A stretch of DNA of 10,325 nucleotides from a virus (lineage: Duplodnaviria > Heunggongvirae > Uroviricota > Caudoviricetes). Positions within the stretch are counted from its first letter, which is position 1; every line of letters starts with the position of its first letter. This document shows positions 7,638 through 10,325 of the stretch, in pieces. A program made the position numbers and the translations under genes. The notes under the pieces are model-generated. The model was not told where the DNA came from and did not search any database. It saw only the letters and a list, made by a program, of their open reading frames with translations. The DNA lies in the IMG/VR virus record IMGVR_UViG_2706794669_000004, one strand, 5' to 3'.

Positions 7638-7662
7638 AATAAAAAACACGCTCGCGGCGTGT
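7638..7662 (-). terminator. tR'-like intrinsic terminator about 75 nt downstream of the late promoter
   Basis: Minus strand: ACACGC-CGCGA-GCGTGT hairpin (7646-7662) followed by TTTTTTATT (complement of 7638-7646). Confidence 0.55.
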
Positions 7663-7723
7663 GTCTGTCGCGGTCTCTATCCGGGGTTCCAATCCCGACG
7701 CCAGATTTTGCTGGCGCGTGAGG

Positions 7724-7753
7724 AATATAGCCCCGGACAATGTGTCTGGTCAA
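7724..7753 (-). promoter_or_regulatory. pR'-like late promoter immediately downstream of Q
   Basis: Minus strand, just after the Q stop: TTGACC (complement of 7748-7753), 17-18 nt spacer, CTATAT/TATATT (7724-7730). Confidence 0.5.
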
Positions 7754-7757
7754 GCAC

Positions 7758-8144
7758 CTACATAATTCGTTCTACGTATCTGTCCATCTCCAGCCGGATA
7801 TCAAGCATCATCAACATGCCATCAATAACCCCTTCCGCTTTCTGCAGGCGCTTGCCAATACAGGTATCCGAACACCCATGTTTCCGTGCCAGACTCATAA
7901 AAGTCATTCCACCTACGTAATAATCCACCAGCAAATCGTGCAAATCCTGATTTTTCTTGTTCAACCGGGCCATACAGCCACAAATTATCATTGCATCATC
8001 ATCAGAACACTGAGGGCGTGATTTCACTTTCGACGGAATTAACCCTTTAAAACCAGCAGCGATCGACGCCCAGGATACATCTTCATGAGTGTTTGCAGCC
8101 CAAGCCCCCCACCGTTCCATAACCTGCTGAATATCACGCGCCAT
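7758..8144 (-). CDS. Q: Late-gene antiterminator Q (short Q family)
   Basis: ATG at 8142-8144 with AGGTGAT upstream, product [61 protein letters not shown]...; resembles QuuD-type antiterminators as recalled; lies between rusA and a late-promoter/terminator pair. Confidence 0.85.
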
Positions 8145-8505
8145 CGTTATCACCTGTGATTTCATAAATCTTCACGCCCAGTCGCCCACCAGGAACGAGC
8201 TGACCGCGCACAATATTGATTTCATCAAACTGCTCGTCGTCTATGAGTAGTCCGGCATGCGTCAGCGCATCCAGTGGTGCTTTCAGGATATTGTCCAGGT
8301 CACGACGGCGCTTATCCGGTGGCTCTGCAATAATCTTTATCGCCAGCCTTCCGGACAGGTTTAATTTCAGCCGCTGCTGGCGAACAATTAGCGTCACATC
8401 ACGGCGATAACGCTCACCAACTTTTGATACAAAATATGTGCTGCCACGACGTCGCCAGTAAGTATTCACCGTCGGCGGATAAGGTAAAATAAACTCATGG
8501 CGCAT
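8134..8505 (-). CDS. rusA: Holliday-junction resolvase RusA
   Basis: 123-aa ORF, ATG at 8503-8505; conserved RusA core [30 protein letters not shown]; typical nin-region location upstream of Q. Confidence 0.9.
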
Positions 8506-8762
8506 CAGCGCAGCACCTCCTGCACCATTTTTTCAAACTTTCCAACTTTGGTTTCCAGCTCTGCCACACAATCAACGAGCTCATCCACCGCTTTTTGTGC
8601 GCGATGTTTCGCCTGCATCAGTTCCCTGAGCGCTGGCACCATATCCCGACGAATGGCATCTTTTGTTACACCTGTTTTTTCCAGTTGTTCCGCCTGTCGC
8701 AACATTTCCTGCGCGTGTTTACGCAATTGTTCAGAGGTAAAAGTCATTGTCTGGTTGTTCAA
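8505..8762 (-). CDS. Hypothetical nin-region protein (about 80-85 aa, helical)
   Basis: ORF between helicase and rusA; stop overlaps rusA start (TGATG), suggesting translational coupling; start is either TTG at 8762 or ATG at 8747 (MTFTSEQLRK...). No recognisable domain. Confidence 0.55.
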   Translation of the reverse strand: MNNQTMTFTSEQLRKHAQEMLRQAEQLEKTGVTKDAIRRDMVPALRELMQAKHRAQKAVDELVDCVAELETKVGKFEKMVQEVLR

Positions 8763-10150
8763 AAGAAACGCTCCATCTTACTGCTGTCGGTACGTGTATT
8801 GCTGTATCTGCGCGGCTGGGGCTGCCGCATTGGGGTGGAAAGAACCTGTGCGCTTTCCTGGTCCACAGGCAGAAAATGTCCGTTATAAAAACGCCGGTAA
8901 ATCGTCCCCAGAGAACCGTTACGTTGTTTCGTGATATTAATTTCTGCTATGCCTGTAGCCTGTGTATCCGGGTTGTACACTTCATCCCTGTAAAGCATCA
9001 GAATGATGTCTGCATCCGCCTCTATTTCTCCGGAATTTTTCAGGTCTGAGTTCATGGGACGTTTATTGGGTCTGGACTCCACACCGCGGGAGAGCTGGCT
9101 CAGCGCAATCAACGGAAAACCACCGGATTTTGCCAGGCCTTTAAGCCCCTTTGAGATTTCACCCACGGCAAGGTCATGACGCCCCGTGGTTCGGGTTTTT
9201 ATCAGCCCGAGATAATCAACCACCACCAGCGCCGTTTCCGGATGTTTAATCAGATGGTGTTTCGTTGTTGCGCATATCTCATCAATGGTCAGGTTCGCCT
9301 GGTCCACCATCCAGATATTGCGCCCGGTCATCCGCCCCACCCCTTGTGAGAAACGCGCCCAGTCTTCATCTTCAAAGTGAGCCACAGATTTCAGGCGTGA
9401 TACTGGCATCCCTCCAGCCGCAGACACCATACGTTCACCAATCTGGATGTTCGCCATCTCCATGGTGAACAGAAGCACACCATGCCCCTGCTCAGTCACC
9501 TTGTCGATGATGTCCAGCGCAAGTTCGGTTTTCCCCATCGAAGGACGGGCGGCAATGAATACCAGGTCTCCGGGCTCCATACCGCCTGTTTTTGCGTCCA
9601 GTTCATCAATACCGGTCATCAACGTCCTGGATTTCTCCAGCCCCTGATTCCGGCATTCAACACGCTCAACCACTTCCGGAAGCACATCATCAATATGTAC
9701 CGGCTGAATGACGCCCTTTCCTGTCGACAGTGTGACCATCATGTTCTGCGCATCCTTCAGGGCATCTTCAGCTGCTTCACAGGTATGCGCATCACGTAAT
9801 TTCTGCAGCGCCTCATTCAGTGTTTTTTCTGCATCGCGCAGTGCGGCATTGCGCCGCAACGCTGCAACATAGTGCTCCAGTGAAGACTTCACCCAGGTTT
9901 TACGCCCGGTATCAGTAATCACCGGGGCAAGTTCCGGCATCTCATTACACAACAGCACGGGGTCAATCACTCCTGAAACACGGGCCTGTCTGCAGATGCC
10001 TGTGTAGATATCCCGATACGCTCGTACAGAAAAAATGTCCGCCGGTAGTGTGATCAGAATATCCATCACTTCATGATCTGCCCCACGCAGAAAGAATGCG
10101 CCAATGACAGCGCCTTCCAGGTCATCATTACGCCAGACTGGTGTTGTCAT
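8759..10150 (-). CDS. Replicative DNA helicase, DnaB family
   Basis: ATG at 10148-10150 with GAGGTG 8 nt upstream (MTTPVWRNDDLEGAVIGAF...); Walker A ARPSMGKT, DnaB C-terminal motifs (ALSQLSRGVESRPNKRPMNSDL, ADADIILMLYRDEVY). ORF-track start at 10291 is an in-frame extension into IS2. Confidence 0.9.
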   Translation of the reverse strand: MTTPVWRNDDLEGAVIGAFFLRGADHEVMDILITLPADIFSVRAYRDIYTGICRQARVSGVIDPVLLCNEMPELAPVITDTGRKTWVKSSLEHYVAALRRNAALRDAEKTLNEALQKLRDAHTCEAAEDALKDAQNMMVTLSTGKGVIQPVHIDDVLPEVVERVECRNQGLEKSRTLMTGIDELDAKTGGMEPGDLVFIAARPSMGKTELALDIIDKVTEQGHGVLLFTMEMANIQIGERMVSAAGGMPVSRLKSVAHFEDEDWARFSQGVGRMTGRNIWMVDQANLTIDEICATTKHHLIKHPETALVVVDYLGLIKTRTTGRHDLAVGEISKGLKGLAKSGGFPLIALSQLSRGVESRPNKRPMNSDLKNSGEIEADADIILMLYRDEVYNPDTQATGIAEINITKQRNGSLGTIYRRFYNGHFLPVDQESAQVLSTPMRQPQPRRYSNTRTDSSKMERFF

Positions 10151-10254
10151 GCAGCCACACCTCTGATACAAGAACGGTAGCTGGGCCAGTTGAACGACAA
10201 CCAGTTGCGCCCCCCGTCTGTGATCCTGTCGGCAATGCGGGGGCTGATGAACGC
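10147..10254 (-). pseudogene. 3' remnant of the gene upstream of the helicase (probable replication initiator or helicase loader), cut by IS2
   Basis: An open frame runs from the IS2 boundary to a TGA overlapping the helicase ATG (ATGA): ...AFISPRIADRITDGGRNWLSFNWPSYRSCIRGVAA-stop. Function not recognisable from 35 residues. Confidence 0.3.
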
Positions 10255-10325
10255 TGGATTTGCCCCTATATTTCCAGACACCTGTTATCACTTAACCCAT
10301 TACTGGCTTGCTGCCGTAGATATTC
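10255..10325 (-). mobile_element. Terminal repeat of a second IS2 copy, continuing beyond the window; opposite orientation to the 5151 fragment
   Basis: TGGATTTGCCCCTATATTTCCAGACACCTGTTATCACTTAACCCATTAC matches the IS2 right end as recalled and shares the CCAGACA..TATCACTTAA core with 5171-5193. That it is a second copy in opposite orientation is inferred from which terminus faces the window. Confidence 0.8.

Follow-up and report, generated by a model that had tools for sequence, protein, structure and literature searches.

What does the IS2 end beside a prophage helicase gene record: the insertion of an element into the neighboring replication gene, or the scar of a larger rearrangement? The question was raised by a stretch of phage DNA of 10,325 nucleotides (hereafter referred to as the window). 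A preliminary description of the window interpreted an IS2 terminus at position 10255 as a second copy of the element that cuts a replication gene, and proposed that this copy, together with an oppositely oriented IS2 piece at 5151-5780, could account for a deletion at 5780.

The window is a Shigella sonnei prophage locus

The window was extended beyond its ends by exact-protein look-up of the helicase. The resulting reference set comprised 16 loci from 14 Shigella sonnei assemblies, 13 being chromosome-sized records. Proteins identical to the helicase and to the truncated portal protein each occur on at least 1000 contigs and are named Shigella sonnei in the source records, the helicase also simply Shigella. 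Window positions 1-5150 and 5782-10325 are 100% identical to most loci from chromosome-sized S. sonnei records. Three loci from two assemblies (L006, and L010 and L020 of CP044191) show 1.5% divergence over 1-5150 and identity over 5782-10325. S. sonnei is of recent clonal origin, which explains the 100% conservation without selection. A search with a 39-nt junction pattern gave no match among GTDB species representatives, where S. sonnei presumably has no representative of its own.

Both window ends fall within insertion sequences, the left one 97 nt inside IS4 and the right one 71 nt inside IS2. The features at its two ends are as follows.

1-97: terminal 97 nt of IS4, cutting the portal gene and forming the other boundary of the remnant
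81-1112, minus strand: portal gene remnant cut by IS4, 343 codons kept
8759-10150, minus strand: intact gene of a DnaB-like replicative helicase, 463 aa
10147-10254, minus strand: 3′ remnant of a DnaC-like helicase-loader gene, 35 codons and TGA, residues 258-292 of 292
10255-10325, minus strand: IRR-proximal 71 nt of an IS2 copy (hereafter IS2a), IS2 positions 1331 to 1261 by alignment to RefSeq-annotated IS2

The loader, holin and portal genes are all truncated, and head and tail genes are missing beyond the portal gene. A functional lambdoid prophage would also require integrase, repressor and initiator genes, none of which was found within 10 kb on either side. With neither loader nor initiator the remnant cannot replicate, and it cannot be packaged because the portal gene is cut by IS4.

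The gene cut upstream of the helicase encoded a DnaC-like loader

The minus-strand frame from 10254 to 10147 translates to AFISPRIADRITDGGRNWLSFNWPSYRSCIRGVAA, followed by a stop. The 35 residues align with 258-292 of an ‘ATP-binding protein’ (292 aa) of E. coli EC11 and agree with it at 34 positions; the gene for this protein is located just upstream of the helicase gene. Homology to related E. coli prophages ends exactly at 10254, and IS2a sits at loader codon 257/258, directly upstream of the helicase. The full-length relative matches phrog_50 (3e-89) and PF01695, and the 35-aa remnant itself matches the phrog_50 C-terminus (E = 5e-6). The IstB/AAA+ ATPase domain (PF01695, residues 141-256 of the relative) is wholly lost. 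As judged from these matches, the remnant is a pseudogene fragment of the DnaC-like phrog_50 family. Its stop codon (TGA, 10149-10147) and the helicase start codon (ATG, 10150-10148) overlap as ATGA. The preliminary description was therefore correct in recognizing a truncated ORF with 35 C-terminal codons overlapping the helicase start, and all its coordinates proved exact. Its suggestion that the replication initiator or loader had been lost holds for both: the loader has been destroyed, and no initiator gene is present at this locus. In the mechanical ORF list the helicase frame, which runs open upstream into IS2, is given as a 510-aa ORF.

Comparison with related prophages identified clear homologues of the truncated ORF within replication modules. 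In the EC11 module (NZ_CP027255.1) the helicase and loader-remnant region is 97.1% identical at the DNA level and has the same ATGA overlap. The EC11 loader, however, is intact and has an initiator gene (phrog_270) upstream, whereas the window keeps no more than 35 codons from the end of the loader gene and lacks the initiator. The EC11 prophage adjoins potB, while the window remnant is located between ypjA and bamE; an argument for inversion based on the orientation of a related prophage at ssrA was dropped for this reason.

IS2a is a rearranged copy of a variant isoform

The IRR of IS2a lies at 10255 in reverse complement and starts with TGGATTTGCCCC. The alignment begins exactly at IS2 position 1331, which bears out the terminus originally placed there. 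Window positions 10254-10325 are 91.7% identical to canonical IS2 (72-nt BLAST alignment, 6 mismatches). The 71-nt end is matched at 99% or more in 1310 of 4016 matching E. coli records; among the matches listed, all are 71/71 (E = 2e-28) and lie within annotated IS3-family transposase genes. This end is not a solo terminal repeat, since beyond 10325 the element is complete (1331 bp) in every S. sonnei locus that extends through it. In reference locus L007 the element spans 8566-9896 and contains orfA (121 aa) and orfB (301 aa); the transposase is also called as one fused protein of 407-424 aa, with 409 aa in the majority of loci. The transposase genes are on the minus strand, co-directional with the helicase, and their ORFs contain PF01527, PF13276, PF00665 and PF13683 (HTH_Tnp_1, HTH_21 and rve types). 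Over its full length IS2a is 97.7% identical to canonical IS2, with 24 of the 30 mismatches in the 3′ 555 nt, and has only 5 mismatches to a variant E. coli copy (L039). On the sequence evidence, IS2a is a variant isoform of IS2. We also considered IS2a as a mosaic of a canonical 5′ and a variant 3′ part, which would have proved a crossover, and rejected this because L039 shows the same spread of differences. Variant-isoform markers are found along the whole of IS2a, and the sequence gives no direct sign of crossover between different copies.

The pentamers flanking IS2a differ (GTTGC vs GCGTT), so the check for target-site duplication turned out negative. In contrast, another copy, IS2b, located inside IS4 1 kb to the left of the window and 99.85% identical to reference IS2, is flanked by GACAC on both sides. 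Since IS2a lacks a target duplication, it is to be regarded as a rearranged copy, not as a different element. IS2b was considered as its reciprocal partner and rejected, as it has its own perfect GACAC duplication.

Beyond IS2a, on the IRL side, the DNA is chromosomal and belongs to the autotransporter gene ypjA, which is interrupted at codon 459. This gene is followed by a recombinase-fragment gene (annotated as partial ‘recombinase family protein’ in E. coli matches), and further along by a DUF5508 gene (ypjCB in the E. coli match), IS1 copies, an alpha-amylase gene and a CsiD-domain gene (glaH in E. coli). The flanks follow the order of the E. coli map as far as ypjA and resume it at bamE. 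The locus has no initiator, immunity or integrase genes. Given the missing target duplication and the presence of ypjA on its far side, IS2a is read as a rearrangement junction and not as a simple insertion. Thus, of the earlier view that IS2 cuts the replication gene, the truncation of the loader stands and the simple insertion (given GTTGC/GCGTT and the ypjA flank) does not. We conclude that the window is very probably an IS-bounded dead remnant (~10 kb) of an S. sonnei lambdoid prophage, with IS2a as a rearrangement scar at its edge.

Fate of the missing prophage DNA

A later rearrangement with IS2 as a substrate would have removed the 5′ part of the loader gene, the initiator, the immunity region and the integrase from the locus. 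The likeliest route would be homologous recombination between this IS2 and another copy of its own isoform. On balance, we favor deletion of the missing DNA over its inversion or translocation elsewhere.

We give somewhat less than an even chance to a moved prophage arm, with IS2a as the inversion or translocation product of IS2 copies in the loader gene and in ypjA and the reciprocal junction elsewhere. In E. coli, ssrA-smpB is located between ypjA and bamE; a purely local deletion would remove it as well, and complete loss of ssrA-smpB is unlikely. In CP044191 (L020), IS4 abuts not bamE but a cluster with Pfam families fitting raiA-pheA-tyrA-aroF. A hybrid IS2 beside the loader remnant in contig L027 follows the common isoform to position 542 and the variant from 777, with IS21 on its far side; L027 is, however, a draft contig in which the assembler may have switched paths inside the repeat. 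S. sonnei genomes are, moreover, heavily rearranged at IS (PMC8072062). Searches for the moved arm itself point the other way. No N-terminal loader fragment of the expected length (~258 aa) was present among the best protein-search hits, where cluster representatives could hide one. The reciprocal junction pattern, GCGTT followed by IRL, was found in IMG/VR in only two unrelated contigs, one with an 80%-identical IS2 relative and the other with a 95% copy and no loader DNA.

A truncated IS2 in the holin gene

At the other side of the bracketed block the following features are found.

5128-5150, minus strand: holin remnant, last 7 codons, the rest of the holin gene being gone
5151-5780, plus strand: 5′ fragment of IS2, positions 1-630, 629/630 identical to IS2

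The fragment carries the IRL (TAGACTGGCCCC... at 5151), complete orfA (5242-5607) and the first part of orfB, and with orfA and 5′ orfB only is not autonomous. It is of the common S. sonnei isoform, identical over all 630 nt to IS2b and to the IS2 of a related contig, L036. It differs from IS2a by 8 mismatches in 630 nt (98.7% identity), and the two are, therefore, different isoforms. Alignment to IS2 confirmed that the two pieces are oppositely oriented and bracket 5781-10254.

CTTAC at 5146-5150 is the IS2 target sequence at the holin site. A full-length IS2 with CTTAC on both sides is present at the same holin site in related contigs L036 and L037. All 16 reference loci contain 441 bp of holin and upstream DNA where the window has IS2(1-630) and an A; IMG/VR contigs L030 and L034, which span the whole site, also have the 441 bp and no IS2(1-630)+A. 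At the 5780 junction only GG is common to the IS2 position 630 side and the deleted partner. Base 5781 is an A, matching neither IS2 (G) nor reference phage DNA (T). The junction was looked for in IMG/VR and not found there, and neither of two junction-spanning ORFs (84 aa and 98 aa) is on record; the holin::IS2 deletion allele is known from the window sequence alone.

We infer that, in the sequenced strain, the holin gene was interrupted at CTTAC by an IS2 of the common S. sonnei isoform. An illegitimate deletion of about 1.15 kb, ending at the GG microhomology at the foot of a GC-rich hairpin, would then have taken away the 3′ 701 bp of this IS2, the second copy of CTTAC and the adjoining 441 bp of holin and upstream sequence. 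The 5780 junction would thus be a later microhomology deletion, which would also have destroyed lysis.

Alternatively, the holin::IS2 allele might have been copied by gene conversion from a paralogous lysis module of the L036/L037 type and then truncated. L036 and L037 are IS600-rich contigs with a lysis module 97.7-99% identical to that of the window, and their IS2 is at the identical nucleotide, in the same orientation and with the CTTAC duplication. The L036 element equals the window fragment over 630 nt, and the flanks do not differ until 5097 on one side and 6031 on the other, which means that a conversion tract would go unnoticed. The pattern of L006, L010 and L020 likewise indicates mosaic exchange in the module. 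Such conversion presupposes, however, that an L036/L037-type module was co-resident in S. sonnei, and the data also fit independent insertion at a favored target site. No IS2 is present at this holin site in 5426 complete E. coli genomes. We consider this origin of the allele rather unlikely.

It is highly unlikely that 5151-5780 is an assembly artefact, a chimeric join via a repeat in a strain that in fact has the reference arrangement or a full IS2. The window does end inside IS4 and IS2, like a repeat-bounded short-read contig, and the allele is found nowhere else. However, the 5780/5781 join lies in unique sequence with 2 nt in common, which a repeat path switch cannot create, and reads spanning the join must therefore exist.

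Hardly credible is the remaining possibility, a simple IS2 insertion in a continuous prophage followed by recombination between the inverted IS2s to produce the 5780 deletion as initially proposed: the pieces are inverted and share 630 nt, but IS2a has no target duplication and has ypjA on its far side, inverted repeats recombine to give inversions and not deletions (a principle restated by Seferbekova et al. 2021, PMC8072062), the reference genomes have IS2a without the 5151-5780 fragment and with a colinear block, the isoforms differ, and GG is all that IS2 at position 630 and the phage DNA share at the junction.

The block between the IS2 pieces

The block 5781-10254 is colinear with the reference S. 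sonnei loci and not inverted. Besides the helicase gene and loader remnant it contains the following.

5781-8762, minus strand: remainder of the bracketed block, between the IS2 fragment and the helicase gene, made up of the features below
8505-8762: 85-aa ORF
8134-8505: RusA
7758-8144: antiterminator Q
7315-7730: isrK/C4 RNA module
6714-7277: ORF6N antirepressor-like gene
6214-6524: four tRNA genes
5781-6213: non-coding DNA, with a GC hairpin at 5782-5800

Two more speculative readings are, taken jointly, improbable. In one, the loader-less helicase-RusA-Q-antirepressor-tRNA block would be retained, with transcription from IS2a, because it serves the host. In the other, the same IS2 point in two non-identical holin genes would reflect either a strong, sequence-specific IS2 hotspot through which lysis is disarmed again and again, or active gene conversion between paralogous prophage remnants in Shigella.

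Implications

The locus shows stepwise disabling of a prophage by IS2 and IS4, affecting the loader, the initiator, the portal and, in the sequenced strain, the holin. The IS2 next to the helicase is best treated as a rearrangement junction and not as an insertion. This is relevant to users of IS positions (for example, in ISMapper-type typing) and to prophage predictors run on Shigella genomes. The strain-specific holin::IS2(1-630) allele, if true, is a possible lineage marker. Beyond annotation the locus is of little importance.

Comparison with known systems

IS2 is an element of about 1.33 kb with orfA and orfB joined by a programmed frameshift. The copies described here agree with IS2 (IS3 family) in both terminal repeats, the 1331-bp length, orfA and orfB, and the 5-bp duplication at clean insertions. 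They differ in that IS2a has 30 substitutions and no target duplication, and that the second copy is limited to the first 630 nt. A composite transposon was rejected: from the geometry, the outer ends of the segment from 5151 through IS2a would be IRL and IRL, not IRL and IRR, and the interior of IS2a lies to the right of 10255, away from the bracketed block.

IS2 ends can create hybrid promoters, as in the IS2-ampC case, via a -35 box or read-through. The geometry here is the same, with the IS2a IRR facing the helicase-RusA-Q genes in the sense direction. Unlike in the IS2-ampC case, a simple σ70 consensus scan across the junction of the IRR and the loader remnant found no promoter-like site.

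Five IS, with IS2 and IS4 among them, have expanded in all Shigella and give rise to gene loss and to differences between strains (Hawkey et al. 2020, PMC7373316). The locus, already in public genomes, is a case of ordinary insertion-sequence-driven genome decay and not a new system. It has the same kind of pseudogenes and junctions, at ypjA, loader, holin and portal, as described for IS-driven decay in Shigella (PMC7373316, PMC8072062); nothing is qualitatively different, the window representing one specific locus of this process.

Truncation of the helicase-loader gene

The window closes with 71 bases (10255-10325), starting TGGATTTGCCCCTATATTTCC, that align in reverse complement with positions 1331 to 1261 of a copy annotated in RefSeq as "IS3-like element IS2 family transposase". 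The 71-mer matched 4016 E. coli records, with identity of ≥99% in 1310; all matches listed were identical over 71/71 bases (E = 2e-28) and lay inside annotated IS3-family transposase genes. When 9800-10325 was compared with related E. coli prophages, similarity stopped precisely at 10254, the annotation under the match reading "replicative DNA helicase" and "ATP-binding protein". The minus-strand frame from 10254 to 10147 encodes AFISPRIADRITDGGRNWLSFNWPSYRSCIRGVAA up to a TGA stop, which forms the overlap ATGA with the start codon of the helicase. This peptide shares 34 of its 35 residues with the C-terminus (residues 258-292) of a 292-aa protein whose gene lies directly upstream of the helicase in EC11, an E. 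coli with an intact replication module. Searched at full length, this E. coli relative gave matches to phrog_50, "DnaC-like helicase loader" (3e-89), and to Pfam IstB_IS21 (PF01695, 2.5e-15); the 35-aa remnant by itself matches the phrog_50 C-terminus (5e-6). Lost from the window are 257 of the 292 loader codons, including the whole of residues 141-256, which match the IstB/AAA+ ATPase domain. The preliminary description had proposed an IS2 terminus at 10255 truncating an ORF whose 35 C-terminal codons overlap the helicase start; the alignment and the EC11 match agree with it, and comparison with related prophages, which it had suggested, showed the cut gene to be the DnaC-like loader.

The 463-aa protein of the window is a DnaB-like helicase (PF03796, 8e-73; phrog_19) and the EC11 gene upstream of the loader encodes a replication initiator (phrog_270, 1e-78; HTH_36), so the intact module is initiator-loader-helicase. 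A mechanical ORF list contains a 510-aa GTG-started ORF (8759-10291, minus strand), since no stop codon interrupts the helicase frame across the loader remnant and into the terminus of IS2; according to homology and gene calls, the gene actually begins at 10150. One S. sonnei genome (JBEAAD010000003.1, L018 164-1385) carries a further IS3-family element within the helicase gene, at window ~9918-9921, which splits it into 101-aa and 387-aa ORFs.

Shigella sonnei loci and the complete IS2

Exact-protein look-up of the helicase yielded 10 loci, nine from chromosome-sized records, and that of the truncated portal six additional loci, all six from such records (HE616528.1 is presumably strain 53G). 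Both exact proteins are named Shigella sonnei or Shigella in source records, in at least 1000 contigs each. No match to the IS2/helicase junction was found in a scan of GTDB representatives. Window 1-5150 and 5782-10325 are 100% identical to most of the fetched S. sonnei loci. In every fetched locus extending far enough the IS2 (hereafter IS2a) is complete, which settles whether 10255-10325 is a solo end: in locus L007 it occupies 8566-9896 (1331 bp; orfA 121 aa, orfB 301 aa). Compared with canonical IS2, IS2a shows 30 mismatches (97.7% identity); it represents a variant isoform present in E. coli too, strain CFSAN061771 carrying a copy that differs from it at five sites.

Three loci from two S. 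sonnei assemblies, L006 (CP032523.1) and L010 and L020 (both CP044191.1), differ from window 1-5150 by 1.5% (69 mismatches) and are 100% identical to 5782-10325. This suggests that their late region (the lysis-terminase-portal half) was exchanged mosaically with another prophage.

A rearrangement junction at IS2a

IS2a has the pentamer GTTGC ahead of its IRL and a different one, GCGTT, behind its IRR. Clean IS2 insertions are surrounded by duplications: GACAC at nearby IS2b, which sits in the IS4 directly left of the window, and CTTAC in two related IMG/VR contigs, L036 and L037. The far side of IS2a is non-phage, a 459-codon ORF reading into IRL that corresponds to the beginning of E. coli ypjA/ehaD, a gene for an adhesin-like autotransporter (97.8-99.5% identity among matches listed). 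It is preceded by a recombinase-fragment gene, a DUF5508 gene (ypjCB in the E. coli match), IS1 copies, an alpha-amylase gene and a CsiD-domain gene (glaH in E. coli). E. coli matches call the recombinase fragment only a partial "recombinase family protein"; by the K-12 map we take it to be pinH. The opposite boundary is an IS4 (window 1-97) that interrupts the portal gene at codon 343 (remnant, 81-1112); beyond it lie bamE-recN-nadK-grpE, identified by their Pfam families. E. coli Z142-6 has the order glaH-amylase-tRNA-Ile-DUF5507 pseudogene (ypjCB in a sister record)-recombinase fragment-ypjA-island-int-ssrA-smpB-ratA-yfjF-bamE. Given this order and the flanks, the S. sonnei remnant replaces the 3' part of ypjA through yfjF.

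Thus, IS2a is a rearrangement junction rather than a simple insertion: the second IS2 does cut the loader gene, as first described, but the expected target-site duplication is absent and ypjA stands on the far flank. The predicted loss of the loader or initiator was right, but its cause is that the fragment stops at IS2a; the 10 kb on either side contain no genes for an integrase, a repressor or an initiator and none for head or tail. A third IS2, IS2b, lay outside the view of the preliminary description. In locus L015, 11100-13770 is IS4 carrying IS2b, ~1 kb left of the window, an arrangement seen in most S. sonnei genomes.

Origin of the ypjA-loader junction

In the likeliest route, which we infer, a variant-isoform IS2 would first have inserted into the loader gene and then undergone homologous recombination with a second copy of that isoform in ypjA; direct copies would lead to deletion of the intervening DNA and inverted copies to its inversion. 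Local deletion alone would take out ssrA-smpB too. The best protein matches, listed as representatives of 90% clusters, include no loader N-terminal fragment of ~258 aa, and the GCGTT+IRL pattern occurs in IMG/VR only in unrelated contigs. A canonical/variant mosaic was rejected on comparison of IS2a with an E. coli variant copy, and a crossover is thus neither proved nor refuted by the sequence of IS2a itself.

Two IMG/VR drafts, in which the assembler may have switched paths, provide evidence that the IS2 beside the loader remnant does recombine. In L027 (4449-7910) it is the common isoform to position 542 and the variant from 777, with IS21 on the far side; in L025 (4418-7513) it is truncated near position 172 and followed by DNA matching the E. 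coli hchA/porin (annotated ompC) region. These far flanks without ypjA reflect either real rearrangement in the strains or path switching during assembly. In CP044191 IS4 is flanked not by bamE but by a cluster with Pfam families fitting raiA-pheA-tyrA-aroF.

The truncated IS2 in the holin gene

Window 5151-5780 corresponds to IS2 positions 1-630 on the plus strand (629/630), so that, as had been claimed, two inverted IS2 pieces bracket 5781-10254. The fragment is identical to IS2b, which lies in direct orientation to it, across 630 nt, and to the L036 IS2; eight differences from IS2a make the bracketing copies different isoforms. With IRL and IRL as its outer ends, the arrangement does not form a composite transposon.

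All 16 reference loci, and the IMG/VR contigs L030 and L034 spanning the whole site, have 441 bp (DNA upstream of the holin gene together with 64 of its 71 codons) in place of IS2(1-630) and one A; contig L029 ends after the first 242 bp of this stretch. The left junction, CTTAC followed by TAGACTGG, is present in the IS600-rich L036 and L037 and in none of 5426 complete E. coli genomes. There a full-length IS2 with the CTTAC duplication (L036 3195-4525; L037 264-1594) occupies the same holin nucleotide, in the same orientation, as at window 5150/5151. Their lysis modules are 97.7-99% identical to the window, the nearest flank differences being at 5097 and 6031; L037 carries ~1.45 kb of additional DNA (1803-3252) within the holin-upstream stretch. 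The common site could reflect a hotspot, shared ancestry or gene conversion, and the holin IS2 may have arrived by fresh transposition or by copying from a paralogous module.

At the right junction IS2 ending in GGGTATGG is joined to (A)CCTCCTCCCCGGAGGGGGG, the deleted partner having the sequence CTACGG(T)CCTCC here; GG are the sole bases in common. Base 5781 is A, compared with G in IS2 and T in all reference phage sequences. The deletion stops at the base of a GC hairpin, directly beside the GC-rich inverted repeat CCTCCTCCCCGGAGGGGGG (5782-5800). An illegitimate deletion of ~1.15 kb would have removed 701 bp of IS2, the second CTTAC and the 441 bp. The preliminary description suggested that recombination between the IS2 pair could explain the deletion at 5780. 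Recombination between inverted copies yields inversion (PMC8072062) and would invert 5781-10254, yet this block is colinear with the references; that reading is therefore rejected.

Transcription and RNA genes of the block

The IS2a transposase genes point the same way as the helicase, and read-through into it is therefore possible; a consensus search across the IRR/flank junction revealed no sigma-70-like site. Rfam matches at gathering level lie between Q and an ORF6N antirepressor-like gene, and tRNA genes lie downstream of Q:

7641-7717, minus strand, isrK (77.5 bits)
7678-7730, minus strand, c4-a1b1 targets
7532-7615, minus strand, C4 antisense RNA (71 bits)
7315-7398, minus strand, sRNA-Xcc1 (77.4 bits)
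6214-6524, minus strand, four close-set tRNA genes (Met-CAT, Arg-TCT, Thr-TGT, Gly-TCC)

Judged by these matches, 7315-7730 is a putative P1/P7 immI-like or isrK-antirepressor control module. A 74-aa ORF that overlaps the RNAs (7529-7753) is probably not a gene.

Comparison with known IS behaviour

The initial observation was real and its coordinates precise; the simple-insertion and 5780-deletion readings fail on the missing target duplication and the colinear block. The IS2a-helicase junction is already in public S. sonnei genomes, and is ordinary and known; the truncated holin::IS2 allele may be the only part specific to this isolate. All Shigella species show expansion of IS1, IS2, IS4, IS600 and IS911, accompanied by convergent loss of genes and by variation between strains (PMC7373316); IS-associated rearrangements in Shigella are many (PMC8072062). 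IS2, a member of the IS3 family, acts here as documented for Shigella.
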